From positions 1 to 26,954 of the IMG/VR virus record IMGVR_UViG_3300024518_000876: DNA of 26,954 bases; one strand, given 5' to 3'. Source of the stretch: a virus. Below are positions 1-24,508 of this stretch, in pieces. The translations under genes were made by a program, and so were the position numbers. The first letter of the stretch is position 1. Each line of letters opens with the position of its first letter. The notes under the pieces were generated by a model, which saw nothing but the letters and a program-made list of their open reading frames with translations, searched no databases and was not told where the DNA came from.

Positions 1-2
1 CC

Positions 3-701
3 GTTAACGGCTAAATAAACATTATTAGAGGTTAATACACCACCGTTATAAGTGTTATTTACTTCTATATCTACAAATACACTTTGAGTAACTAAAGTAC
101 CGTTATAAGTGTTATTTATAAAATCATTTACTTGCCTACTAATATCTATGTAAATATTATTATCATTTAAAAATCTTGGTTTTTTTGTATAGGTGTAAGT
201 TGGTGTACTTGGTTTACTAACATTTAAAACACCCTCATAAATAAATACTTTGTATTCTGTACTGATACTACTAACTAAATTAGAGCCATCAAATACGGGT
301 GAAGATATAAAAAATGGACTTCTAACATTTATACGTCTAACTGAAACACTTAAATCAAACTCCACCTCAAAAGTTATCCCTGTAAATGTAGATACTCCAC
401 CACTAAATGCTATACTTTCATTTAAAGCCGTTATAGTTACAACATTGTCAAATCTACTAACTGAATACAAAGCTGGGTTTAAATCTCTATTACCAGCAAA
501 TTCAAATAATTGAGCGTTAAGAATACCTTGTTGAGTTGGGTCAGCTAATTGTACTGCAATTTCAAAAGATTGTGGGAATATATTTACATAATCCCAAACA
601 ACTTGAGTTGTAACACCTAATGTATCTTCTTGAGTTAATGTTATATTTTGCCCTACATTGGGTTGTGTATTATCAAATGTTAATTTTATAAAGTTGCTCA
701 T
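3..701 (-). CDS. Putative virion structural protein, 3' end runs off the window
   Basis: Not in the ORF track (no stop in window). ATG at 701 overlaps the TGA of 698..1210 (ATGA). Translates MSNFIKLTFDNTQPNVGQNITL...RINVRSPFFISS...NNTYNG; rich in T/V/N, in a morphogenesis context. Confidence 0.7.
   Translation of the reverse strand, partial: MSNFIKLTFDNTQPNVGQNITLTQEDTLGVTTQVVWDYVNIFPQSFEIAVQLADPTQQGILNAQLFEFAGNRDLNPALYSVSRFDNVVTITALNESIAFSGGVSTFTGITFEVEFDLSVSVRRINVRSPFFISSPVFDGSNLVSSISTEYKVFIYEGVLNVSKPSTPTYTYTKKPRFLNDNNIYIDISRQVNDFINNTYNGTLVTQSVFVDIEVNNTYNGGVLTSNNVYLAVN
42..118. repeat. 20-bp perfect direct repeat ACCGTTATAAGTGTTATTTA (42-61, 99-118)
   Basis: Read directly; copies are 57 bp (19 codons) apart and in frame, both encoding NNTYNG. 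Confidence 0.85.
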
Positions 702-1210
702 GTTGTAAAGTCTAAAAAGTTATCTAAATCTAGGTTAAATGCCTTAACTATTTCGTCTGGTAGTTTCTTAAATTGTTGTTCAAAAGATAAACTAAAAAAT
801 TTTGTAGGTTTTTGTCCTTTTGAAAATATATGCCTACTCATTATAAAACCAAATTGTTTTGCAGTAATAAACTTACCTGTTTTTTTATCTCTTGGTTTAA
901 TCCCTTTAGCCTTTGCCCATTTACCAAATACACTTGGTGGTGGTGGTTTAGTTGTATAAGAGTATGGTGTATCATATTTTTGGTCAACACCACTAACACC
1001 TTTATCTACATACTCACCATAATCTAACATTTCAAAACTAAATGAAACTATATTACCATTGTTAGATATTTTAGCGGGTGTAAAACTTAAAGAATTATAT
1101 AAATCACTTGTTGCATTCTTTTTTTCTTTTGTAAGTCTACTTCTTGACTGTTGTACAACTGCTTTACCAAACTTATTTAATGCTCTTTCTGTGTTTATGG
1201 GTTTACGCAT
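698..1210 (-). CDS. Putative neck/tail-completion protein
   Basis: 170 aa, basic; motifs LYNSL, MLDYGEYVDKGV, PPPSVFGKW, GQKPTKFF resemble phage head-tail completion proteins; position in the structural block. Confidence 0.55.
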   Translation of the reverse strand: MRKPINTERALNKFGKAVVQQSRSRLTKEKKNATSDLYNSLSFTPAKISNNGNIVSFSFEMLDYGEYVDKGVSGVDQKYDTPYSYTTKPPPPSVFGKWAKAKGIKPRDKKTGKFITAKQFGFIMSRHIFSKGQKPTKFFSLSFEQQFKKLPDEIVKAFNLDLDNFLDFTT

Positions 1211-1659
1211 ACGTCAATCTCTGGACTTGGTACTCCAATATTAAAAGTTAAATCCCATCCCGCTAATCTGTTTTGTGTTTCAGTATCTAAAACTTTATCA
1301 AATGTTGGTTGTCCATCAATATAAATACTTTCTCCTACTGAATTTCTTCTCATTAGCATAAAGAACCTCCTAATAATATTATCTGTATTATTATAAACCT
1401 CTTGTAAATTGTCATTACCTAAAAACTTCTCTTGTGTAATGTTGTTATTTTCTGTAACAATATCTAATACAGAAACAACCACAGTATAAATATTTAGATT
1501 TTCTTCTACTGTACCATTATTAACCACAATATGCGCCATAATAGGTATGTTTTGCCTGTATGCGTCTAAATCATCAATATCACCCTCAGTGATAGTAATA
1601 ACCCTTGCATCTGTCCTTAAAGTATCTTTTATGCCGTTTATTAATTTAAAGTAACTCAT
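1195..1659 (-). CDS. Putative tail-terminator-like structural protein
   Basis: 154 aa, acidic, ends NRLAGWDLTFNIGVP; size and position fit a tail terminator. Confidence 0.5.
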   Translation of the reverse strand: MSYFKLINGIKDTLRTDARVITITEGDIDDLDAYRQNIPIMAHIVVNNGTVEENLNIYTVVVSVLDIVTENNNITQEKFLGNDNLQEVYNNTDNIIRRFFMLMRRNSVGESIYIDGQPTFDKVLDTETQNRLAGWDLTFNIGVPSPEIDVCVNP

Positions 1660-1661
1660 GT

Positions 1662-1904
1662 TTATTTTTTTATAGGTCGCATTAATTTAGCCTTATCACT
1701 CTCAAAGGCTAATCTAAATAATACTTTATTGATAGGGATGTATTGTACTTCTTCAATTCTGATACGCTCTGCGCTAGCGTATGTATCATAAGTCTGATAC
1801 CATCCCCATTTTTTACTGAATCTAATTGCTCTATCGTCTGCACTTGTTCCGCTTGACTCATAAAGTTCTGGGTATCGTTTACTAATTCGCTCCCTAAATT
1901 CAAA
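1662..1904 (-). CDS. Alternative -1-frame C-terminus (80 aa) of the 1709..2428 gene; fusion about 255 aa
   Basis: -1 frame is open from the T10 run to TAA at 1664-1662 (FEFRERISKRYPEL...FSKKWGWYQTYD...LAFESDKAKLMRPIKK) and ends 2 nt before the next ATG (1659). A TGA lies just upstream of the run in this frame, and its only ATG is 6 codons from the end. Confidence 0.7.
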   Translation of the reverse strand, partial: FEFRERISKRYPELYESSGTSADDRAIRFSKKWGWYQTYDTYASAERIRIEEVQYIPINKVLFRLAFESDKAKLMRPIKK

Positions 1905-2428
1905 AAAAAAAGCAATGCGCTCTCATAAATCTCATAAGGCGCATCTTTAAAAATATCAGTATTATTTTTGTGGTTGTAGGCTTGTATTTTATAAGTTCCT
2001 TTTTTGTTCTTAGAAAACAAACTTTTGTAAAACTTCTCTTTTATTACGGGACGATAAAGTACGTTTAAAATACTGTAAGCATTTGCGTCAGCATTCCCCA
2101 ATAATTTATCTAACGTACCATATTCGCCCGTACTCATGTTTTCAATATCGGGAATAAACCCATATTTAACACCGTTTAAATCAAATGTTAAATGTAATGT
2201 ACTTTCAGTATTTAAAGCCTCTGTAACAACTTTTAATGCGTGTTGGTATTCTTTAAATGGTAACTTATCTACTAAAGAAATAGGTATATTTAAACACTCA
2301 GCTAATAATTGTGTTTCTGTAACTTCTGACTCTCTATCTTCTGCTATTTTATAAAGCCGACTAATACTTAAAAACCTTTCGACTGTTATATCTTTTTTAG
2401 TTTCTGGTATTGTGTAAGTTAAATTCAT
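1709..2428 (-). CDS. Conserved phage protein, probable tail-assembly-chaperone-type frameshifting gene (0-frame product 239 aa)
   Basis: ORF track; motifs YGFIPDIENMSTGEY, LYRPV, ALLFFL; contains the CTT TTT TTT TTG slippery run. Confidence 0.65.
   Translation of the reverse strand: MNLTYTIPETKKDITVERFLSISRLYKIAEDRESEVTETQLLAECLNIPISLVDKLPFKEYQHALKVVTEALNTESTLHLTFDLNGVKYGFIPDIENMSTGEYGTLDKLLGNADANAYSILNVLYRPVIKEKFYKSLFSKNKKGTYKIQAYNHKNNTDIFKDAPYEIYESALLFFLNLGSELVNDTQNFMSQAEQVQTIEQLDSVKNGDGIRLMIHTLAQSVSELKKYNTSLSIKYYLD
1902..1911 (-). promoter_or_regulatory. Candidate -1 frameshift / slippage site (T10)
   Basis: A10 on the + strand gives a T TTT TTT heptamer in the correct phase, followed by an open -1 frame. 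Confidence 0.65.
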
Positions 2429-2448
2429 TATAGATTTAGTTTATTAAT

Positions 2449-2461
2449 TGTAAATATACAA
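2449..2461 (-). promoter_or_regulatory. Candidate promoter element TTGTATATTTACA, copy 1
   Basis: Identical 13-mer at 4286-4298; both are intergenic and just upstream of morphogenesis genes; resembles the Bacteroidota -7 box TAnnTTTG. Confidence 0.5.
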
Positions 2462-2466
2462 TAAAT

Positions 2467-3627
2467 TTACCTTATATCTACACCGCTTTTTTTGTTACTT
2501 AAAGTCATTACTGCAAAGTATCTCATTGCATCTATACAATGATTGAAATTATCAATAGGTTTATTTAGTTTGTTTCCCTCTCGGTCTGTGTCCCAAGTGT
2601 AATTTCTTAATTCCTTAATTAAATTTGTACTTTGTTTAGTAACCTTAAAAGAGTTTTCTTGTAATAACGATATACCATAATTAATACTGTCTTTTCCTTT
2701 CTTAGCACCCTTTATAATAACTCCAGAACGTCTAATTTCTTCTATACTTTTTGGCTCGGCACTATCTGCAAAAATAAACCTCCTTAAATCTTTCTTGCAA
2801 AGTTTAGCAATATCATTATTTAATAAACCTGTTCTATAAACTGACTCATGAAAAATTATTTCATTGTTATATTTGTAAGCATCAATTAATGTTGTAGGGT
2901 CATTTGTATAACCAAAATCCATACCGCTACCTAAATACTTGGCATCTGTTGGTAAACTGTCAATCTGTTGCCAATTCTCAAACACTACACCGTCTAAATT
3001 ACCAACGTGACCAAGTCCATAAACATTATACCAATTTTTCCAAAAGTTAGATTTAACTGCTTTCTCTTTTGCTTTGAGTATAAAATCTATTGCCGACTGC
3101 GGGCAAGCCTCATTATCTTCATAAGTTAGTATTATAAAGTCAGTATCTTTATCCCCCTCTAATTCGTTATGAAACCAAAACTTTGCAGTAGGGTTCCAAT
3201 CTAAAAACACTTCTTTTTTTGTCCTACTTGCTAATTCTGTATATGCATGAAATGTCATATTGTTACATTCATTCATGTATAGAATATCTCTCCTTGCCCC
3301 TCTTAACTTTGCATCATTATCAGCACTAAAAAATTCTATGTAACTACCATTAGGAAACTGAAACTTTGAGTCTGTTCTGTTAAAATAATTATCATACCAA
3401 CGATTAGTTAATAGCATTATCTTTTTAAAGTCTTTTAACGCACCCCTTTTTAAATGTGGTATTGACTCAGCAACTATACTAATTTCTAAGTTAGGTGTTT
3501 GTATTGCCCTATTAATAAGAACAGGTAGAATACCGAAAGTTTTACCCGCAGATGTTCCACCTTGTATTCCCTTAATCCTTTTTTTTAAGGATAGTATTTT
3601 ATTTATTGCAGTTGTTCTTTTAAACAT
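2467..3627 (-). CDS. terL: Terminase large subunit, PBSX family
   Basis: Walker A QGGTSAGKT, Walker B ILYMNE, coupling motif DWNP, nuclease motifs GMDFGYTNDPT, ADSAEPKSI, NHCIDAMRY. Confidence 0.95.
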   Translation of the reverse strand: MFKRTTAINKILSLKKRIKGIQGGTSAGKTFGILPVLINRAIQTPNLEISIVAESIPHLKRGALKDFKKIMLLTNRWYDNYFNRTDSKFQFPNGSYIEFFSADNDAKLRGARRDILYMNECNNMTFHAYTELASRTKKEVFLDWNPTAKFWFHNELEGDKDTDFIILTYEDNEACPQSAIDFILKAKEKAVKSNFWKNWYNVYGLGHVGNLDGVVFENWQQIDSLPTDAKYLGSGMDFGYTNDPTTLIDAYKYNNEIIFHESVYRTGLLNNDIAKLCKKDLRRFIFADSAEPKSIEEIRRSGVIIKGAKKGKDSINYGISLLQENSFKVTKQSTNLIKELRNYTWDTDREGNKLNKPIDNFNHCIDAMRYFAVMTLSNKKSGVDIR

Positions 3628-3891
3628 TTATAGTTCATCTGGAAACAATGGTTGTATCTCGTTAATTGTTATGTCTTTTGTTTCTGTCGGTTTACCTAAA
3701 GAATACTCTAAAAGTAATTTACTAGCTGGTATATCTTGCTCATCAATCGCTTTACCTAATAGCATAGTCAAAACCTCTGCAAGTTTCTCAACTGTAACAA
3801 CACTTTTAACAACGTCTTTATATTCGTTCTTTCGTTTGTCTGCTCCTTTTGTTTTGGTGCTATGTCCTCCGTTTTGTTTTCGTTTATCCAT
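3628..3891 (-). CDS. Probable terminase small subunit
   Basis: 87 aa abutting terL upstream; RKQNGG N-terminus and ASKLLLEYSLGKP motif. Confidence 0.65.
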   Translation of the reverse strand: MDKRKQNGGHSTKTKGADKRKNEYKDVVKSVVTVEKLAEVLTMLLGKAIDEQDIPASKLLLEYSLGKPTETKDITINEIQPLFPDEL

Positions 3892-3932
3892 GATTAATAG
3901 AAATTAACTATTAATTTATTTATTAAATTTTT

Positions 3933-4283
3933 TTACTCTCTTTCGTACACCTTATTAATTTTGTTAATCCAAGTTTTCCAAGTAGATACCCCACAAGTGT
4001 AACAAGGTTTAACGCTCATTGCTAAACAGTCTTTTAATAGCCTCACAATTAGCTTAGTTTCTTCTAACTCTATTTTGTTTTGATTCGGTCTATTAATAAA
4101 TGTTTCCCACTCTAAACGCTCTGATTCGTTTAAGTTTCTTTTGTAAGGGAATAACTTATTTAACTTCTCTTGTCGTTTGTTGCAACCCTCGCATTCTCCT
4201 ACAAGTTTTTTGATACCTGTTACTTCTGTTATCTTTGCAACTGTGTCTCCTAATCCTTTTTTTGTTTTTCTTTTTCTTGCCAT
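3933..4283 (-). CDS. Conserved phage protein with CxxC pairs
   Basis: ATG at 4283 (MARKRK) preferred to TTG 4298, which lies within the promoter-like 13-mer; KGLGDTVAKIT, CEGC, CYTC. Confidence 0.75.
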   Translation of the reverse strand: MARKRKTKKGLGDTVAKITEVTGIKKLVGECEGCNKRQEKLNKLFPYKRNLNESERLEWETFINRPNQNKIELEETKLIVRLLKDCLAMSVKPCYTCGVSTWKTWINKINKVYERE

Positions 4284-4285
4284 AG

Positions 4286-4298
4286 TGTAAATATACAA
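4286..4298 (-). promoter_or_regulatory. Candidate promoter element TTGTATATTTACA, copy 2
   Basis: Identical to 2449-2461; upstream of the terminase operon. Confidence 0.5.
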
Positions 4299-4325
4299 AA
4301 TTTAAAAATACGCCATTAAAACGGC

Positions 4326-4638
4326 TCATAACACGTAATATAATTAATACTCTATTTCGTGCTTATCAATAACATATTTGGTAAACTCGTCAGCGGTTAA
4401 GTAGTGCTTCAATACATCATCAAAGTGCTTCATATCCCTTCGGGCGTTTACATCAGAGTTTCTAATTCTAATTAGTGCACTAACTACAATTCTATCTTCT
4501 TCATCTCTTGGTATCTTAACTAACACCCTCATACTTCTTTCGGTTTCTCTAACACTATCTAAAACCGCTTCATGCATTTTCATATCCATAATATTCTATT
4601 TTTTAAATACGTACTAATCATATTACCATTCATTAGGT
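4326..4638 (+). repeat. attC-like element E1, enclosing a whole gene
   Basis: TCATAAC 4326-4332; arms GTAATATAATTAATAC (4335-4350) and GTACTAATCATATTAC (4611-4626), 14/16 complementary; right core degenerate A|TTAGGT. Confidence 0.6.
4344..4589 (-). CDS. Hypothetical protein, nested in E1
   Basis: 81-aa ORF with ATG start and A-rich leader. Confidence 0.7.
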   Translation of the reverse strand: MDMKMHEAVLDSVRETERSMRVLVKIPRDEEDRIVVSALIRIRNSDVNARRDMKHFDDVLKHYLTADEFTKYVIDKHEIEY

Positions 4639-4839
4639 AACATTTACCCATTCGTCATTTTTAAATACTTCTACTTGCCACCATCTAAGCTCTGTTACCT
4701 CACCATTCATAGAGCTATCAATTTCATCACACCAAAGTATATTTATTATCCTATATTTTAATGGATTTAATCCTACCACAATACCTTCGTAGTAGCAATC
4801 ACCATCTTCTATATCTCTTATTTTATCTCCTATTTTCAT
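4633..4839 (-). CDS. Hypothetical cassette protein
   Basis: 68 aa, MKIGDKIR start suggests an SH3/KOW-like barrel; stop codon coincides with the TTA of the core site. Confidence 0.75.
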   Translation of the reverse strand: MKIGDKIRDIEDGDCYYEGIVVGLNPLKYRIINILWCDEIDSSMNGEVTELRWWQVEVFKNDEWVNVT

Positions 4840-4858
4840 ATTACTTAATTTAAACGTT

Positions 4859-4910
4859 ACCTAACAAAGTATAAAGTCCATTAAAACGCACCTTATACAA
4901 TGCGTTGTAA
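4859..4910 (+). repeat. attC-like element E2
   Basis: ACCTAAC aaa GTATAAAG tc CATTAAAACG ca CCTTATAC aatgc GTTGTAA. Confidence 0.8.
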
Positions 4911-4916
4911 GTAATA

Positions 4917-5129
4917 CTATCCTTCGTCTTCAAATTGATATATTGGGTGTAAAATAGATTTAGGGTTCTTCCTTTTTAATCCATTTTCGGTTATCTTTTT
5001 AATAGCATTGTTTATCACTTTTGCACCACCTTTGCTTATCCAAGTATCTCTACTATTTAAGTGGCTTTCAAAAGCAAGTGCTACATAATAAAGTTCTTTG
5101 TCTGTAAAATCTATTTTTTCTCGTCCCAT
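4917..5129 (-). CDS. Hypothetical cassette protein
   Basis: 70-aa ORF filling the interval between E2 and E3. Confidence 0.75.
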   Translation of the reverse strand: MGREKIDFTDKELYYVALAFESHLNSRDTWISKGGAKVINNAIKKITENGLKRKNPKSILHPIYQFEDEG

Positions 5130-5161
5130 ATTTAAGTTTTGTTATTAATTATCCGTACTAC

Positions 5162-5212
5162 TTACAACTAATATTAAACAACATTAAAACGTTGTTTACT
5201 CTTTAGTTATGT
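5162..5212 (+). repeat. attC-like element E3
   Basis: TTACAAC..TAAACAAC ATTAAAAC GTTGTTTA..GTTATGT. Confidence 0.75.
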
Positions 5213-5458
5213 GCAATTTAATTTTAAAATATTTTTTGCACTGCTTTCTTTATACGCTCGCCACAAGCTACGTCTTTGCCAATAGTTAAAATGTATTACA
5301 GTTGGTGTCTGTATTTTAATTGACCTTCTGCCGTTTGCTATCCATAGGTGTATTCCCCAAGTATCATTCATATATCTACATTCACCTAATTCCCATTGCT
5401 CGCTATTTTCATCCATAGAAGCAATTATTTTGTTTACTAATTCTTTCTTGTTTTCCAT
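5207..5458 (-). CDS. Hypothetical cassette protein
   Basis: ATG at 5458; stop codon coincides with the TTA of the E3 core. Confidence 0.75.
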   Translation of the reverse strand: MENKKELVNKIIASMDENSEQWELGECRYMNDTWGIHLWIANGRRSIKIQTPTVIHFNYWQRRSLWRAYKESSAKNILKLNCT

Positions 5459-5493
5459 CAAAAATATTTTAAAATTAAACTGTTCACTTCGTC

Positions 5494-5554
5494 ACATAAC
5501 AATGTATATAATTAACTCCATTTCATTCCGCAAATCATATACGGAACGTTATAA
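5494..5554 (+). repeat. attC-like element E4
   Basis: ACATAAC aat GTATATAATT..AATCATATAC ggaac GTTATAA. Confidence 0.8.
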
Positions 5555-5558
5555 ATAA

Positions 5559-5765
5559 TTAAATTACTTCATTCGCTCCTTTTGGTAATTCAGCCCAATG
5601 CGTTATTGGGTTGTCCGTTACAAAATCACCGCCCCAATTTTGCCAAAAACCTCTATCACTTAAATTTGAGTAATTAGCTATAAATATTCCGTTATTTTTT
5701 AAGCAAACAAGGTAAATACCAATTGTTTTTTTTGGCAAACTTTCTTTTATATCAATCCATTCCAT
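5559..5765 (-). CDS. DUF551-like phage protein
   Basis: MEWIDIKESLP...YLV...ITHWAELP pattern; start moved to ATG 5765 because the longer ORF-track start lies in E5. Confidence 0.75.
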   Translation of the reverse strand: MEWIDIKESLPKKTIGIYLVCLKNNGIFIANYSNLSDRGFWQNWGGDFVTDNPITHWAELPKGANEVI

Positions 5766-5776
5766 AATTAAACTAT

Positions 5777-5837
5777 TAATAACATTGTTTATATTCCATT
5801 TTCGTACCTCAAACGGTACATACACTAACCGTTATGG
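5777..5837 (+). repeat. attC-like element E5
   Basis: TAATAAC att GTTTAT..CC.TTT..AAA.GG..ATACAC taacc GTTATGG. Confidence 0.65.
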
Positions 5838-5842
5838 TGCAA

Positions 5843-5938
5843 TTAAAAAAGACACATAACACCGTATAAAAACAATGCTATACTTATCCCTATTAAAACT
5901 GCTTTTGTTGCACTTGGATAATTTGGTAATTTTCTCAT
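5843..5938 (-). CDS. 31-aa hydrophobic microprotein starting inside E6
   Basis: Below the ORF-track cutoff: MRKLPNYPSATKAVLIGISIALFLYGVMCLF; A-rich leader; one TM-like stretch. Confidence 0.5.
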   Translation of the reverse strand: MRKLPNYPSATKAVLIGISIALFLYGVMCLF

Positions 5939-5985
5939 AGTTTTATCTTTTTAATTCGCACTTTTCTTATACAATCACGTTATAA
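5854..5985 (+). repeat. attC-like element E6 (long loop)
   Basis: ACATAAC acc GTATAAAAACAATGC (5864-5878)..GCACTTTTCTTATAC (5958-5972) aatcac GTTATAA; arms 12/15 complementary. Confidence 0.75.
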
Positions 5986-6186
5986 TTAATCAATCCATAA
6001 TACCGACCTTGTAGAAGTGTAACTATCTCCACTAATATACCCAATCGGTAATAAAACATACTCTTCTTCTAAGTAAGCATCTCCATCTTCAAATTTTATA
6101 TCTTTAATTGTAGTACTTGGTTTTATCCAACCTTTTTTAATGTACTCTTTTAATTTATTTTTTCTGTTCTCTATTATTTTATTCAT
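5986..6186 (-). CDS. Hypothetical cassette protein
   Basis: 66-aa ORF between E6 and E7. Confidence 0.75.
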   Translation of the reverse strand: MNKIIENRKNKLKEYIKKGWIKPSTTIKDIKFEDGDAYLEEEYVLLPIGYISGDSYTSTRSVLWID

Positions 6187-6200
6187 ATTTTTAAATTTAA

Positions 6201-6253
6201 TTATAACACTATGTATAGCACATTAAAACGATGCCATACACAATACGTTGTAA
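6201..6253 (+). repeat. attC-like element E7
   Basis: TTATAAC acta TGTATAGCA CATTAAAACG a TGCCATACA caatac GTTGTAA. Confidence 0.8.
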
Positions 6254-6262
6254 GTAATTGTA

Positions 6263-6643
6263 CTAAACCTTGTTAATTGTATCTTCACATGGTCTGCAAA
6301 TATTGTAAGTCACTTTAGCCTTGTTTTCATTGCATACTTCGCACAACTGTTCGCTTTGCCGTACAACACTGGGTATAGCAAATGATTCTTTGGCTTCATA
6401 TTTAGCTACTATTTCAGCCTTATCTATAAATTCATTACCTCCATCTTTTTCAAGCATTGTAAGTAAGCCAATTAACAGTTCACTTCGTTTGCTAATATTT
6501 TGTATAGTTAAATTTTTAACCTTACATTTTAGCTCCTTTATATCTTCCTTGTACTTGTCACAGTATTTACTTAGCCCTGCAACTGCTTGCCTACTCATCT
6601 TTAGGTCTTCCTGCAATTCTCTTATTTTTCCTTTTTGTGCCAT
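6263..6643 (-). CDS. Hypothetical coiled-coil protein with C-terminal CxxC..CxxC; reads through two attC-like left arms
   Basis: 126 aa; internal repeats LTIQNISKRSELL and FAIPSVVRQSEQL map onto the arms at 6474-6510 and 6345-6380. Confidence 0.75.
   Translation of the reverse strand: MAQKGKIRELQEDLKMSRQAVAGLSKYCDKYKEDIKELKCKVKNLTIQNISKRSELLIGLLTMLEKDGGNEFIDKAEIVAKYEAKESFAIPSVVRQSEQLCEVCNENKAKVTYNICRPCEDTINKV
6361..6380 (+). repeat. Orphan attC-like left arm E8 inside a CDS
   Basis: GTACAAC actgg GTATAGCA, similar to the left arm of E7; no clear right arm. Confidence 0.55.
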
Positions 6644-6694
6644 TTTTGTTTATTTAATCGGTTAAAAATCAAACCATACAATTTACCGTTATAA
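6490..6694 (+). repeat. attC-like element E9 enclosing the 5' part of 6263..6643
   Basis: Arms TTGTATAGTTAAATTTTTAACC (6500-6521) and GGTTAAAAATCAAACCATACAA (6660-6681), 19/22 complementary; left core degenerate TGCTAAT, right core GTTATAA. Confidence 0.7.
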
Positions 6695-6749
6695 ACAATT
6701 AGTTTGTCCATATCTTCTAAATTCATAATTTTAAAAGTTTATACCATTA

Positions 6750-14941: not shown

Positions 14942-15636
14942 TACCAGTTAATAATATACTCTTTTCCATTATTTTTTTCTATTATTTTGTTAATAGTGTT
15001 AAAATGAGGACAATTCCAATCTCTACCCTTTCTTTTAGCTGTAGCAGGTTTTTCATACTTTAAAACATAATGATTGTTAGTATTTACCATTTCTACAAAA
15101 GGTTGCAAAGACCTCCCAATAAACAAAAAAATTACACCTGTACTGTACATATTTATAACTTCAAATACTTTTTCAGTAAAGTGTCTCCAATGTTTATTGT
15201 GGCTATTAGGCTTGTCTTTTTCTACGGTCAAAGCAGTATTTAAAAGTAATACACCTTGACTTGCCCATTTTTCTAAATCATAATCCATAAAGTATAAACC
15301 ATCTTTACATTTTTTCTCAATACAATGCTCTATATCTATTAATGTAGGATGTATTTCTTTATTGACACTCTCATTATTAGCAAATGCTAATCCGGTAGCT
15401 GACCCATCTGTATAAGGATGAGAATTTACTATAACTACCTTTAGGTCATTGAACTGAGTAAGCTTAAATGCTTTAAACATGTCTGACTTATTAGGATATA
15501 CATGAAAAAATGCATATCTTTTTTGTAAAAAATTAGACATATTATTAACCCAATTTTCTCTGAGAGAGACTTGAGCTAATTTTTTAGCCCAATCTCCCAT
15601 TTCTAGTGTGTTTATAAAATTATAAGACTTCTTCAT
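14941..15636 (-). CDS. Family-1 uracil-DNA glycosylase fold with substituted catalytic motifs
   Basis: VYP..FKAF, LKVVI, ATGLAF, WASQGVLLLNTALTVE, PNSH..W; GQDPY replaced by NSHPY and HPSP by KPAT. Confidence 0.8.
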   Translation of the reverse strand: MKKSYNFINTLEMGDWAKKLAQVSLRENWVNNMSNFLQKRYAFFHVYPNKSDMFKAFKLTQFNDLKVVIVNSHPYTDGSATGLAFANNESVNKEIHPTLIDIEHCIEKKCKDGLYFMDYDLEKWASQGVLLLNTALTVEKDKPNSHNKHWRHFTEKVFEVINMYSTGVIFLFIGRSLQPFVEMVNTNNHYVLKYEKPATAKRKGRDWNCPHFNTINKIIEKNNGKEYIINW

Positions 15637-17308
15637 CTGGTTCTACTTCATTTACTTCTTCTGGTTCTAGTGGATTTACTTCGTGATTTACTGGCTCGGG
15701 TCCTCCTACGTTAATTGGAATTTCTCCATATCTACCGGCTAAAGGATGTTGACCAAGTATTTGATCCAGCAGTTCTCTTCTATTTTGTAACTTTGTTATA
15801 TTGAAGATTTCATCAGAATTACTGTTATCAGATTTTGCCCAATTAAATCTACCAGTAGGAATACGTAGTTCATCACCTGTAATGTTACCGTCTCTAAGTT
15901 GATGACTAGTGCATCTACATCTATTAGCAAAATAGTTTTTAAGTCCATCCACTAATCTTAAATCACTAGCATATTCACTATTAATTATTTTTGAAATACT
16001 TAATCCATAAAAGGCACTAGTATCTGCTAAAATAACATTTTGTTTACGTTTAGTATATTTTAAAATTGCTGCGCAAATGAACATAAAATTTATTACTTTA
16101 TTTGGATCATCTGTTGCAGTATGAATTCTGAATTCTACTGTTTTTTTATTACCAAATATAATAGGTATTAAATTTACCCAGTGGTATCTACTTCGTACAT
16201 TCCATTTACTTCTTCCTTCTGGATCTGCCGGGTGACTAGTTACATTTCCTAAATTAGAAAACTGCTCATAATCTTGACCCATAGAAAGGTATTTAAATAA
16301 ATACCCAAAACTTTTTTTTACTTCTTTTGCATTCTTTGCTTTTCTACCCATTTCTGAAAACACTTTAAATACAGGTAAAGGTGCAGTATAGCACTTTTTC
16401 TTAACCCCATGATTTTCTTTTTTATAAATAGGAAACGCACTGAACATTTCATCTTGGACTATTGTTAACACTTTGTACAATGCAACTAAATACTCTTCTG
16501 TTCTTGGTACTCCTCCAAAGTGAATATGTAAAGAACAGTCGTCATTATGAGACGTTCTTTTTTGTAATTCCTTACAAGTTTCTACTATTGTTTGTAAACC
16601 TTTCTTTCCTGATAAAGGTATGGTTACAAATTCTAATCCTGAAATACTACCATCTCTTAAAGGTAGTACTCCTAGTCTAGAAGAAATACGTGGGGGAATA
16701 TATCCCTGTGTAGTTTCAAATTCTAATCCAAAAGATAATCCATCTAACTTAGAACCGTGCTTTTCAATTAGTAGGCTGTTAGGAGTATTAAAGTTTTCTT
16801 TATGAATATCAATAACTGCACCCATGTTTCCATTAGCATCGTAAGGTAATCTTCTTTTTGCTTCCTGTGAAATATTTTTTGAAATAAGTTGCTTAGCGTC
16901 TATTATATTGATGTGATAAAATTTTCCCGATTTTAACTCTTCTCTATAGTAGGTGTTTGTGAATAAATCTGCAAATAAAGCTATAGTTTTTTTTCCTTTT
17001 TTACATAAGACTTCAACATTAAAAAATTGATTATATGTAAAATAACCATATATAAAAGTTTCTAAATCAGGTTTTAAGTTTATTACTCCATAAATAAGAG
17101 AGTCTACTTTTTTTACATACTTTTCTAATCCGTGGTCATAAACAATATAACCTGTGTCTGCTCTGCAGAATTTTCCATCCACTTCATAGCACTGTCCTGA
17201 GCCTTCTATAGAAGAATCTCCTATTTTATAAAAGTTACCTTTGATGTATCTACACTCGTCTCTTAATGCTTCCGTACCATCTATGGTAATTACAAGTTTT
17301 TTGTCCAT
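15620..17308 (-). CDS. Putative amidoligase (Amidoligase_2, glutamine-synthetase-like fold)
   Basis: FGLEFET, DGSI, GLEFVT.PL, CSLHIHFG, RYHWVNL, TVEFRIH. Confidence 0.85.
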   Translation of the reverse strand: MDKKLVITIDGTEALRDECRYIKGNFYKIGDSSIEGSGQCYEVDGKFCRADTGYIVYDHGLEKYVKKVDSLIYGVINLKPDLETFIYGYFTYNQFFNVEVLCKKGKKTIALFADLFTNTYYREELKSGKFYHINIIDAKQLISKNISQEAKRRLPYDANGNMGAVIDIHKENFNTPNSLLIEKHGSKLDGLSFGLEFETTQGYIPPRISSRLGVLPLRDGSISGLEFVTIPLSGKKGLQTIVETCKELQKRTSHNDDCSLHIHFGGVPRTEEYLVALYKVLTIVQDEMFSAFPIYKKENHGVKKKCYTAPLPVFKVFSEMGRKAKNAKEVKKSFGYLFKYLSMGQDYEQFSNLGNVTSHPADPEGRSKWNVRSRYHWVNLIPIIFGNKKTVEFRIHTATDDPNKVINFMFICAAILKYTKRKQNVILADTSAFYGLSISKIINSEYASDLRLVDGLKNYFANRCRCTSHQLRDGNITGDELRIPTGRFNWAKSDNSNSDEIFNITKLQNRRELLDQILGQHPLAGRYGEIPINVGGPEPVNHEVNPLEPEEVNEVEPDEEVL

Positions 17309-17318
17309 TTTTATTTTT

Positions 17319-19187
17319 TTAATTAATTTCTAAAGTACTATCTATTAATGTATTGATTATCTTTATTGCCTTTTCAGCATTTTTATTAGGCAGATACTTT
17401 TTTAATGCTTCTTTACCTACAGGTAATTTTGTTAATGCATCTTCAAAAATTTCATCTATAGTATCTAATACTAATGCATTATCTGCTTCTTCATTATCAC
17501 GGTTAGGACCAAGATATGAATTACCTAAATTATTCCATTCATCTTCAACTTGACAAGTAATACATGTATTATCTCCACATACACAATCATGTAGTTGGTT
17601 AGTTGGGTTTACTTCTGCTTTAGGAAGTGGTAATTCTATAATTGGTTTCTTTGGTTTTAAAACTAGATTTGAAGGAGTACGTAAGTTATTAGTATCTACT
17701 AAGTTTCCGTTAATAAACTTATAGGTTTTATAAGCACCTAATCCTCCCCACCATCCTGTGTATAAGTCACCATTAAACATCACATTTTGAGCAGTGTAAT
17801 GCATATTTGTCAGTATATTACAAACTGGATGTTTAGACATATGACTTAACTGCTTCCAAGTAAATTCATTTGTTTGTCCTACCCTTGCTTTAACTGTTAA
17901 ATAATCTAATTCAGTACGTAAGTTTACACCTTGAACAAAGTAACTAAATTTAATTTCTGATCCCAGGAAAAAAGCCACTTTTTTATTTTCAGCGATGCTT
18001 GCTGCATAAGTATCAAACTCTCCGTCTTCATAATTAAATATTTTACCTTTTACAGAATCAGCTACTTTAGCCGCTTCGTCACGAGTGTGTCCTAAAAAGT
18101 AAAAACCATAGTCACTTATAAAAGTATAAATACCATTTATTAAATGACCGTTTCTAAAATAACGTAGTTTGTGAAAAATAGGTCTTTTACCTACTTGTAT
18201 AGTTGCGAACCTAGGCGTTTCTTTATATATGTTTTGGTCAGGAGATAATTCTATAATCTTTTCCGAAGTATTAAACGCACTATTAGCTTTAGTTATTTTT
18301 TCTGCTTTCTTTTTAAATTGTTGTCTTTTATTAATACCATATTTCCCATTGTTACTGCTAAAATGCGAATTATTATTAAAACTTGAGCCATAAGTTTGCT
18401 TTTGAGTCTGATTTGATCTATCTATTTTATATTTAATTGCTTTAGATATATCTCCATTTGTAATTTTATAAACAATATTAGTATCAAATTCTCCAATATT
18501 TGTGTCATCTCCTCCAGCTAATACTTGTAAAGAAGATTTTAAAGAAGAAATATATAAACTATTTTTACTTTCTTTAAAGAAAAACAAAGGTCTTTCTCCT
18601 TCAGTAGTAGCAGAATGTTCGTAATGTTTACTTTCTCCACGATAACAGTATATTACATTAGGTTCTTCTGTATTAGTAAACACTAAAGCAGCTCCTCCTG
18701 TGTAATCTTCAAGTACATTAAAAGAAGTTGAATGATAAATACATTCTAAGAGTATTTCACTATCAATTTTTACTCTATTTGTTACATAATGTAGCCCTTT
18801 TTCCTCTTCTGAAATTTTTACATCATAAGTATTTGCAATTTCTGTTTTATTGTATAAAGTACCATTATGTACTCCTATAAACTTATAAATGTTATTTTTT
18901 AATCCAAACCCAAACGGATGGGCATTTTCTATAGAAGCGTCTCCATTAGATGCTTGTCTAGTATGCCCTATAACAGTTGGCATTTTTACAGGGTTTGCTA
19001 AAGGTTCACCAGACACTAGGTAATCTTTAAACAGTCTAGTAGCTTTTAAACCTATTCTTATAGTCCCGTCAATAGTTTCTCCACATGAAGTTTTACCTCT
19101 AGATTCGTTATATAACCCTAGTATATTAAAAGAACTTCTGTTAAACTTAGTTGGGTTTTTTCCAGCCCATGCAAATATTCCACACAT
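17319..19187 (-). CDS. Class II (Ntn) glutamine amidotransferase with long unknown C-terminal region
   Basis: MCGIF, SRG, GHTRQAS, NAHPF, HNGTL, DSE; C-terminal CVCGDNTCITC. Confidence 0.9.
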   Translation of the reverse strand: MCGIFAWAGKNPTKFNRSSFNILGLYNESRGKTSCGETIDGTIRIGLKATRLFKDYLVSGEPLANPVKMPTVIGHTRQASNGDASIENAHPFGFGLKNNIYKFIGVHNGTLYNKTEIANTYDVKISEEEKGLHYVTNRVKIDSEILLECIYHSTSFNVLEDYTGGAALVFTNTEEPNVIYCYRGESKHYEHSATTEGERPLFFFKESKNSLYISSLKSSLQVLAGGDDTNIGEFDTNIVYKITNGDISKAIKYKIDRSNQTQKQTYGSSFNNNSHFSSNNGKYGINKRQQFKKKAEKITKANSAFNTSEKIIELSPDQNIYKETPRFATIQVGKRPIFHKLRYFRNGHLINGIYTFISDYGFYFLGHTRDEAAKVADSVKGKIFNYEDGEFDTYAASIAENKKVAFFLGSEIKFSYFVQGVNLRTELDYLTVKARVGQTNEFTWKQLSHMSKHPVCNILTNMHYTAQNVMFNGDLYTGWWGGLGAYKTYKFINGNLVDTNNLRTPSNLVLKPKKPIIELPLPKAEVNPTNQLHDCVCGDNTCITCQVEDEWNNLGNSYLGPNRDNEEADNALVLDTIDEIFEDALTKLPVGKEALKKYLPNKNAEKAIKIINTLIDSTLEIN

Positions 19188-19188
19188 A

Positions 19189-20001
19189 TTATACTTTTTC
19201 TTTTAAATTAATCATTTTTATTTCTCTTACACTAGCTATTATAGAAATAGCTAATTCTTTATTGTTACTATTAATAGCTTCTACAATCTTGTCTTGCATA
19301 GCCATTAACTTCGTTACATTTTCTTTATTTTGTACAAATTTTATTGCGTTAATAGTAGAGTTAAAAGCCCATGCTTTTAGTTCATCTGTGTAAATCCAAA
19401 AATTAGATAAAGTTCTGTACTCTAATCCATAATCTTTAAATCTAAACGCACCTGCTTTACCGTACATTGTTTTTCTTCTATCGTCTTGATCCAGTATAAC
19501 TGATGGAACACCTAAAAACAAATCCATTGCTCTTACTATGTCTTCCACTTGTCCTACATCTCCTGCATTTGGATATCCTACATGTATATGACCACCTGCT
19601 GTTCTTAATTTAGAACTTGATTCTGGTGGAGTATTTGCACATCTTAAATAAGCATTGTAATCTGGTTCGCAACCAAATTCTCTTGCTTGTTTAGTTTGTA
19701 AATACTTAGGATCCAACACTTCGCTCGCAGAATAATGTAGTCTTAAATCTTGTAAGCCTAAAGTAGCTTCTAAATAAGTTAACACTACATTTATTTCTTT
19801 TGTGAACTCCTCTGGAGATGAACAAGGCGGAGTATTAAACTCTACCATTACATTGTCCTCCTGTACAGCATGTCCTTCATCAGTTATATATTTAGGGGCT
19901 TTTTTAGTTCCACCTATTAAACCTTCAGCTGATACTACTTCTGTATCATTTGCTATAAATAATTCTGGGTCAGTTCCTAATTTTATTTTTGTAATATCCA
20001 T
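19189..20001 (-). CDS. phiEco32-like COOH-NH2 ligase type 2
   Basis: LGTDPELF, GGTK..P, QEDNVMVEFN, FGCEPDYNAY, RTAGGHIHVG, RR..YGKAGAFR, GLEYRTLSNFW. Confidence 0.92.
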   Translation of the reverse strand: MDITKIKLGTDPELFIANDTEVVSAEGLIGGTKKAPKYITDEGHAVQEDNVMVEFNTPPCSSPEEFTKEINVVLTYLEATLGLQDLRLHYSASEVLDPKYLQTKQAREFGCEPDYNAYLRCANTPPESSSKLRTAGGHIHVGYPNAGDVGQVEDIVRAMDLFLGVPSVILDQDDRRKTMYGKAGAFRFKDYGLEYRTLSNFWIYTDELKAWAFNSTINAIKFVQNKENVTKLMAMQDKIVEAINSNNKELAISIIASVREIKMINLKEKV

Positions 20002-23740: not shown

Positions 23741-24508
23741 CTATATAAAAATCTTAGTCCAATCTATCGTCAAATCGCCTGTATTTTCGTCTGATACAGC
23801 TACTACAATTTTCTGACCCTTCAGATGGGTACTTCTGGCTCCCGCCGTTAAACTTTCAGAAGGTTGAAAGTTGATGATAGTTTCATTATCATCTCTATAG
23901 ATATAACCTATAGCATCTACTTGTGAACATAAAATACTTGAACTTTTACCTGTCAAATCTAAACCTCTCTCTGGCATCTCTTTACCATCTTTTTCTACGA
24001 GTTTATCTTTTAGATGTCCTATAATAATAAAAGTATCACATAAATCCTCAAGTTCATTTAAAACCATTTGTAAAGCCATTCTAGTGTATCTATAACCAGC
24101 ACCTTGAGGTAAATCCCTCACATCTTCGCCAGTCCAATTTCTACCCATAGAAGTCTTTCTATACAACTTTCCTGCTAATCCTAAAACAATATCTTCTAAA
24201 GCTGTCACTGTGTCTAAAGCGATGTAATTATATACAAACCCTCCCTTTTCTTTATTAGCTTCTTTGATTTTATTTATTACTTGTTTTAAAATAACAATAG
24301 GTTCTACTTCTTCTTTAGTTGCTATTGCTTTAACATTAATTTTTAAAGCATCTACAAATTCAGAACCTGATTCTAAATCAATTATTAAGCAGTTATCTAA
24401 CTCACTTAATATAGTAGTTTTTCCAGTCTTAGGTTTTCCATATATAACCATAGTCTTAGGGTTTACTCTCCCTGCTTTAACTTTTTTATTTGGTAATTCC
24501 AACATCAT
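23741..24508 (-). CDS. Sak4-like / AAA_24 ATPase
   Basis: YGKPKTGKTT, IIDLESG, LDTVT, GAGY, IIGH, VDAIGY. Confidence 0.85.
   Translation of the reverse strand: MMLELPNKKVKAGRVNPKTMVIYGKPKTGKTTILSELDNCLIIDLESGSEFVDALKINVKAIATKEEVEPIVILKQVINKIKEANKEKGGFVYNYIALDTVTALEDIVLGLAGKLYRKTSMGRNWTGEDVRDLPQGAGYRYTRMALQMVLNELEDLCDTFIIIGHLKDKLVEKDGKEMPERGLDLTGKSSSILCSQVDAIGYIYRDDNETIINFQPSESLTAGARSTHLKGQKIVVAVSDENTGDLTIDWTKIFI

Follow-up and report, generated by a model that had tools for sequence, protein, structure and literature searches.

Gene cassettes and hairpin recombination sites of a probable integron-like system in Flavobacteriaceae and their phages

In integrons, the bottom strand of the recombination site folds as single-stranded DNA, one strand is exchanged at the core, and the mobile unit is a circle. 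The IMG/VR virus record IMGVR_UViG_3300024518_000876 raises the question of whether gene cassettes of this kind are carried by phages that encode no integrase. The window analysed here is a 26,954-nucleotide stretch, positions 1 to 26,954 of that record; coordinates are those of the window unless marked "genome", which denotes the whole 103.5-kb contig containing it. An original prediction, made from the letters of the window, described imperfect AAC...GTT hairpins between small open reading frames (ORFs) as an attC-type cassette array. We located eight such hairpins at 4332-6690, in a single orientation and with every gene on the minus strand. Very likely, they serve as recombination sites, and the genes between them as cassettes, in an integron-like system that Flavobacteriaceae share with their phages. 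At the level of sequence, the analysis demonstrates the anatomy of the site, the boundaries of the unit, its polarity, its sharing between phages and a host, and its proximity to one family of recombinases.

The signature that sets these hairpins apart lies in their flanks. The six bases following each GTT were compared with the reverse complement of the six preceding the next AAC, that is, across a gene (the stretch from GTT through the gene to AAC is called the cassette body below). Over the seven units of the window, 35 of 42 bases paired (permutation mean 20.3, p=0.0008), and 45 of 63 when nine nucleotides were used (p=0.0016), versus 15 of 42 for the two flanks of one hairpin (random mean 11.7, maximum 25 in 100,000 draws). 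The cores are thus fully complementary solely in the excised unit, as had been predicted. The complementary pairs listed in the prediction agree with those re-derived here, the pair at 5549/5765 amounting to 12 of 15 over the re-analysed span; at 4632/4633 the pairing across the gene is real, but the core reads ATT rather than GTT. Among 47 other viral units, across-gene pairing averaged 4.45 of 6 versus 2.27 after permutation. The arms covary as well: in 136 sites, 7.71 of nine positions pair versus 5.59 with swapped arms, with several pair types per position, as counted by script in an ungapped register (a MAFFT alignment of these short sites mixed registers). A site finder seeded with 15 sites from the window and two cultured phages returned six sites on the 103.5-kb contig; five of them lie in the window array and the sixth at 103255, and three shuffled genomes yielded none.

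The sites are also strongly polar. When the circle junction was rebuilt, the bottom strand folded better in 47 of 48 phage sites and 28 of 29 host sites, and the junction on average folded better than the integrated form. At one arm position a conserved G.T wobble forms on the bottom strand in 95 of 135 sites, and in none on the top strand; read in an ungapped register, the spacers are offset by 2-3 nt. All 30 internal units of the hosts carry their genes in sense. In the phages, 38 of 43 units have them antisense; of the five that do not, four are short overlapping frames of similar length. Since the folding bias is identical in hosts and phages, it tracks the DNA site and not the transcript. 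Folding both strands thereby bore out the proposal that the phage genes lie on the attC bottom strand, opposite to typical cassettes. The reverse polarity, with the minus strand as top strand, was hinted at by locus L003 and is ruled out by the Freya phages, the entry hairpin and the host pairs described below. Like attC clusters that come without an integron integrase (CALINs), the window has at least two sites of one orientation, with inverted AAC/GTT cores and paired inner arms, between ORFs; a CALIN gene lies on the top strand and reads towards its own site, whereas the window genes are all antisense.

Comparison of relatives reveals where units are gained, lost and replaced. The cultured Polaribacter Freya phages have a common fixed junction just upstream of a 271-aa integrase gene. 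Relative to Freya_10, Freya_9 lacks 307 bp, Freya_5 lacks 3.2 kb and Freya_1 lacks 4.9 kb, and the first unit differs in Freya_6. All of these changes start at the GTT beside the integrase gene, and the deletions end at a later GTT, taking out bodies together with their right-hand hairpins. Whole units have likewise come and gone at G|TT in two host arrays and at loci headed by an entry hairpin of the type found at 5166-5208 (H3). At 17 such loci an anchor sequence (4309-4334 in the window) followed by an H3-type hairpin heads the array and leads into 16 different first cassettes, diverging past the GTT; these are mainly relatives of phage A, the source of the left end of the window, together with a crAss-like phage and a third backbone. 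In two bacteria, a common cassette and its right hairpin are flanked by different sequence on both outer sides. Pairwise comparisons gave no case in which a hairpin interior was kept with its right-hand body and eight in which the right body stood behind another hairpin.

Breakpoints at G|TT were thus borne out by the Freya series and the entry-hairpin loci, but some exchanges fall at the AAC core. The body at 4904-5168 has a 94.5% copy at locus L148, bounded by GTT and AAC and followed by a different hairpin, and the window is the sole locus that pairs the anchor with a different interior. Both cases of AAC exchange in the window could, we infer, go back to a single event in which 4335-5168 was inserted at the entry hairpin's AAC. 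At loci L148, L149 and L150, the body found at 4904-5168 starts at GTT without a preceding hairpin, as if it had been inserted at a secondary site.

The chromosomes of Winogradskyella poriferorum and Flavobacteriaceae sp. LMIT009 hold 19 and 13 of these sites, respectively, each set forming an array. Both arrays adjoin a divergent tyrosine recombinase gene, which in LMIT009 lies at L137:1456-2523, and their first site is not a hairpin and has a common motif before the GTT. The recombinase combines a SAM_4 with a PF00589 domain and reaches 194.6 on the integron-integrase model TIGR02249 (cut-off 265). Its alignment to VchIntIA comes in two pieces, with about 35-40 residues left out at the position of the IntI insertion; its best matches are XerA/XerC/XerD and archaeal Xer-like families, all below the respective cut-offs. 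In a Flavobacteriaceae sample, a full site lies within 1.5 kb of 16 of the 30 best homologues (two upstream and 14 downstream), versus none of 11 other recombinase loci used as a control. Leef and the Cellulophaga phage Ingeline have a related integrase and a similar first site, and attI-like sites are present in the hosts, Freya, Leef and Ingeline. In the contig the attI site is absent and the array is headed by a hairpin instead, and the absence of an integrase noted in the prediction extends to the whole contig, in which neither PF00589 nor tblastn with the host and Freya enzymes detected a recombinase. No IntI with the IntI-specific insertion was found in the contig or beside the arrays. 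The cassette architecture and G|TT crossover of the prediction stand; its term IntI-like is not supported as it was put, since the array-linked enzyme lacks the IntI insertion and falls under the TIGR02249 cut-off.

Several further observations concern the hosts. The Winogradskyella array opens with an antisense cassette that is 83-85% identical, from GTT to AAC, to bodies in phage-like contigs, which points to phage-host traffic. At L136:2208-2409, a cassette of phage polarity occupies the first position of a Winogradskyella array whose recombinase gene has an internal TAG stop. Loci L269-L292 of Flavobacteriaceae show a second arrangement, with sites downstream of the recombinase gene and the top strand codirectional with it. 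Loci L124 and L127, short contigs in a Mycoplasma and a Robiginitalea metagenome-assembled genome, have antisense-type arrays and resemble phage DNA that was mis-binned. Host genomes searched with a gapped pattern returned no matches, the pattern being too strict.

These findings suggest the following model. The mobile unit normally consists of a body, with its cassette-specific complementary ends, and the hairpin interior on its right; the relatives show such units being gained, lost or replaced at G|TT. By analogy with attC, a tyrosine recombinase would cut the folded single-stranded bottom strand and exchange one strand at the core, and the unit would depart or enter as a circle. The enzyme is most likely the SAM_4 and PF00589 recombinase without the IntI insertion that is found beside host arrays and in some phages. 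A phage without an integrase, the crAss-like one included, would probably obtain it in trans from the host or a co-infecting phage. A conserved atypical hairpin marks the variable start of arrays that have no adjoining recombinase. A rarer exchange at the AAC core would re-pair bodies and hairpins; here the pattern is observed in the comparisons and the mechanism is our reading of it. More speculatively, antisense genes running with replication might place the bottom strand on the lagging-strand template and so favour shuffling; GC skew is consistent with this idea but is no test of it, because skew also follows gene direction.

On balance, we favour regarding the system as a second class of integron, in which a tyrosine recombinase without the IntI insertion acts on folded single-stranded sites, phages and hosts draw on one cassette pool, phage cassettes have reverse polarity, and bodies and hairpins are re-paired. 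In this reading, the pool serves the host as well as lytic phages, siphovirus-like and crAss-like, that are unrelated to each other. If new cassettes arise by the re-pairing of bodies and hairpins, phages would therefore be a visible source of them.

Could a true IntI of some host be responsible instead? If so, the elements would be classical integron cassettes (CALINs) and the neighbouring recombinase incidental. The core motifs, polarity and strand bias are indeed those of attC, and IntI1 recombined five of the six phage sites tested by Qi et al. 2023 (PMC9892861). The single failure, P12002L_attC1, is however a member of the window's site family; Bacteroidetes are nearly without complete integrons (PMC9024848); the array-linked enzyme scores 194.6 versus 265 and lacks about 35-40 residues of VchIntIA; and the Freya changes begin right at the integrase gene. 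We consider this explanation improbable. Somewhat less probable still is a role of the hairpins as linker repeats, at which phage annealing proteins would carry out homologous or micro-homology exchange with no need of a site-specific enzyme. The crAss-like phage does encode a Sak4-like single-strand annealing protein (23741-24508) and Freya a RecT, the same interiors turn up between bodies that are unrelated, and some of the breakpoints fall within or at the left arm. Such exchange leaves unexplained the cassette-specific complementary ends and the covarying arms of different sequence, and the Freya junction sequences have little in common beyond GTT; homology-driven annealing may add to the shuffling between sites. 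Least probable, and very unlikely, is that the hairpins work chiefly at the RNA level, as terminators or as RNase III or stability sites separating early genes. In phages the mRNA strand is the better-folding strand, but the same strand folds better in host arrays, where the mRNA is the other strand; there are just two terminator-like matches in the region and no Rfam match, and flank pairing across genes is a signature of DNA junctions. A secondary effect of the hairpins on transcripts may exist.

Other points weigh against the integron-like model that we prefer. Sites of the window served as seeds for the finder, and patterns taken from them brought in many of the viral loci. In at least five cases one body or anchor is followed by different right hairpins, a misfit to the strict attC unit, and some window sites are decayed (the ATT at 4632 and the ends at 6367 and 6745). 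The link to the recombinase is one of neighbourhood only, and at 14 of the 16 homologues the sites are downstream rather than in divergent arrangement. No recombinase was found in the contig, nor any above cut-off in 33 site-bearing phage records, which are mostly fragments. Among the listed contig joints of four sequencing runs there was no excision-circle junction, although contigs lose rare forms. A 4329-to-5166 joint in run X2 was rejected, since the crAss-like phage carries that junction at 103052 and the joint cannot be counted as excision, and a 4629-to-6246 joint was too weak (depth 2, with a 20-nt side).

The prediction had treated the array as that of one phage. Two terminase genes, steps in depth and a repeat of the contig end indicate otherwise, and we hold with strong confidence that the window is an assembly chimera uniting the arrays of two phages at a common cassette. 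Bases 1-4903 most likely belong to phage A, and those from 4904 onward to a 98.5-kb crAss-like phage (phage B); of the array, 4309-4903 would belong to one phage and 5206-6745 to the other, with 4904-5205 common to both. The final 127 bases of the contig (genome 103373-103499) are identical to 4903-5029; this identity starts one base ahead of the GTT at 4904, and a different hairpin precedes the copy at the end. The body at 4904-5168 is the probable junction. In the probable source run, depth is 33x at 4231-4932, 125x at 4903-5195 and 76-89x from 5181, so that 33x plus 85x compares with the 125x of the shared stretch. In two other runs, a contig covering 4903 onward has 308 different bases ahead of it, which by their length are consistent with the contig's end; one of these runs has no coverage of 4304-4700. 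The simplest reading of the repeat is a crAss-like circle of 98,470 bp (4904-103373), with an array made up of 103029-103373 plus 4904-6745. Phage B has a crAss-type terminase, portal and capsid genes and a genome of about 100 kb, as expected of a Crassvirales-like phage. A genuine recombinant molecule may instead be present in the window. The contig was rated 100% complete despite its two terminase large subunits and its lasso end, and findings in 1-4903 probably concern another phage than the remainder. Depth drops from about 185x to 35x at the anchor (4304-4437), and so the first cassette must be a different one in most of the sample's phage A molecules. Elsewhere in the crAss-like phage, amidoligase, glutamine amidotransferase and COOH.NH2 ligase genes are adjacent at 15620-20001. 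The parts of the array and the two terminase genes are as follows.

2467-3627, minus strand: phage A terminase large subunit; 53% identity to its counterparts in 43-kb Flavobacterium phages
Genome 50453-52753: terminase large subunit of crAss-like type, with portal and capsid genes present
4309-4334, plus strand: fixed left anchor of the array, a 24-mer with one variable position; second copy at genome 103029
4332-4634, plus strand: hairpin H1, 297-nt interior, arms pair, right core ATT; phage A
4344-4589, minus strand: 81-aa ORF inside the H1 loop, no family match
4632-4865, plus strand: cassette body 1, 68-aa ORF at 4633-4839 (minus strand); phage A
4863-4906, plus strand: hairpin H2, short type with a conserved 10-nt loop
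4904-5168, plus strand: cassette body 2, 70-aa ORF at 4917-5129 (minus strand); common to both phages
5166-5208, plus strand: hairpin H3, entry-type interior, identical to genome 103052-103090
5206-5500, plus strand: cassette body 3, 83-aa ORF at 5207-5458 (minus strand); crAss-like phage B
5498-5550, plus strand: hairpin H4
5548-5783, plus strand: cassette body 4, 68-aa DUF551 gene at 5559-5765 (minus strand)
5781-5833, plus strand: hairpin H5, whose interior separates two other bodies at locus L084
5831-5860, plus strand: empty cassette body, 30 bp
5858-5981, plus strand: hairpin H6, 118-nt type; a 31-aa ORF at 5843-5938 (minus strand) overlaps it
5979-6207, plus strand: cassette body 6, 66-aa ORF at 5986-6186 (minus strand); ends complementary over 11 nt
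6205-6249, plus strand: hairpin H7, short type
6247-6367, plus strand: cassette body 7, 121 bp, ends partly decayed
6365-6690, plus strand: hairpin H8, 320-nt interior
6688-6745, plus strand: last, decayed body, its end one base short of the AAC core

The array therefore extends to about 6745. Its anchor looks like the relic of an empty cassette body, and the 24-mer heads arrays at 17 other loci, the contig's own end among them. Empty bodies resembling 5831-5860 also occur at loci L099, L249, L251 and L252; at L249:1396-2491 (reverse-strand coordinates), 29-bp empty bodies alternate with hairpins whose 177-217-nt interiors could accommodate small genes. The ATT at the right core of H1 is a mutated GTT, the right half being found with an intact GTT at L084. 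The ends of body 1 are complementary at 13 of 15 positions, and a pattern derived from H7 has matches in 38 viral contigs. Both H1 and H8 carry genes in loops of 300-320 nt; the 126-aa ORF at 6263-6643 starts in the H8 loop and reads through the H8 left arm, and it also crosses a second arm-like stretch without a partner (6470-6510). Joints at 6378-6647 and 6540-6656 come from other molecules with different loops in the H8 region. Within the contig, the 9-mer ATTAAAACG is confined to the array (4315, 4880, 5183 and 6222; genome 103035 and 103067), always on the same strand, in the loops of short hairpins and inside empty bodies; host sites have it too, and it is possibly a protein-binding signal.

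The only cargo function assigned was that of the DUF551 gene at 5559-5765 (PF04448, 25.9 bits versus a cut-off of 22); ESM Atlas matches of at most 0.83 were uninformative, and homologue searches with the 68- and 66-aa genes gave distant matches at most. DNA methyltransferases are cargo in related arrays. No relevant RNA family was found in the array with Rfam, promoter-like sites in the region were no more frequent than chance, and no viral relatives of the helicase were found.

Bacteroidota are considered almost devoid of complete integrons, and the IntI insertion is considered what enables the enzyme to use folded single-stranded sites. Arrays of 13-19 cassettes beside an enzyme without that insertion would, if the model is true, revise both views. 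How cassettes are made is a long-open question that becomes testable here, since the arrays display empty bodies, loops that hold genes, and a hairpin that recurs on several bodies. Cultured material is at hand in the form of Freya isolates that differ by single units, plus the host. The locus adds a crAss-like phage whose cassette and entry site are identical to those of an unrelated phage from the same seawater, and it illustrates how viral genomes can become fused, through cassettes they have in common, in an assembly that is rated 100% complete.

A literature search, covering few subscription papers, found the site family and its enzyme undescribed and only Qi et al. 2023 directly relevant. 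That paper (PMC9892861) reports 17 attC clusters in phages, the Polaribacter phage P12002L included, and so answers the original suggestion that no such phage array was known: since 2023, attC clusters have been on record from virulent phages, among them a flavobacterial one. These phage CALINs resemble the window array in that attC-type hairpins separate the small genes of a lytic phage that has no integrase, and relatives carry methyltransferase cargo. Two sites were called there in P12002L versus at least eight, in two stretches, by our finder; P12002L_attC1, the only one of the six tested sites that IntI1 did not recombine, belongs to the window's family, and, in the opposite reading direction, attC2 overlaps another P12002L array at its left end. 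The phage sites were handled as IntI substrates, and antisense genes, the entry hairpin, host arrays and a non-IntI recombinase are unmentioned in the parts consulted. Clusters of attC sites in phages are thus already reported, whereas the literature search found no account of the Flavobacteriaceae-phage site family with its probable non-IntI recombinase.

Among cultured phages, Freya and Leef have the same sites and antisense genes, and Ingeline has a first unit; they differ from the integrase-less phages in having their own integrase and a non-hairpin entry site. Bartlau et al. (PMC8776804), who described Freya genomes of 44.0-48.9 kb, took the integrase as a sign of temperate life, and their main text is silent on integrons and cassettes. 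Xer recombinases are the best sequence matches of the array-linked enzyme, which differs from them in having the IntI-type SAM_4 domain and in adjoining hairpin arrays. Neron et al. 2022 (PMC9024848) list one complete integron for Bacteroidetes proper. With sedentary chromosomal integrons, such as the Vibrio cholerae superintegron, the system shares a divergent tyrosine recombinase, a non-hairpin first site, units cut at G|TT, cores complementary solely when excised, and a bias towards bottom-strand folding. It departs from them in its recombinase without the IntI insertion, its antisense phage genes, its spacers of about 3 and 5-6 nt, its conserved G.T wobble and complementary ends of about 9 nt, the lack, in the ungapped register, of an obvious fixed bulge in the first ten arm pairs, its empty bodies, its genes in loops of up to 320 nt, and its repeated exchange at the AAC core. 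The system appears to function like an integron, yet its recombinase and the orientation of its genes place it outside the integrons as defined by IntI and by cassette polarity.

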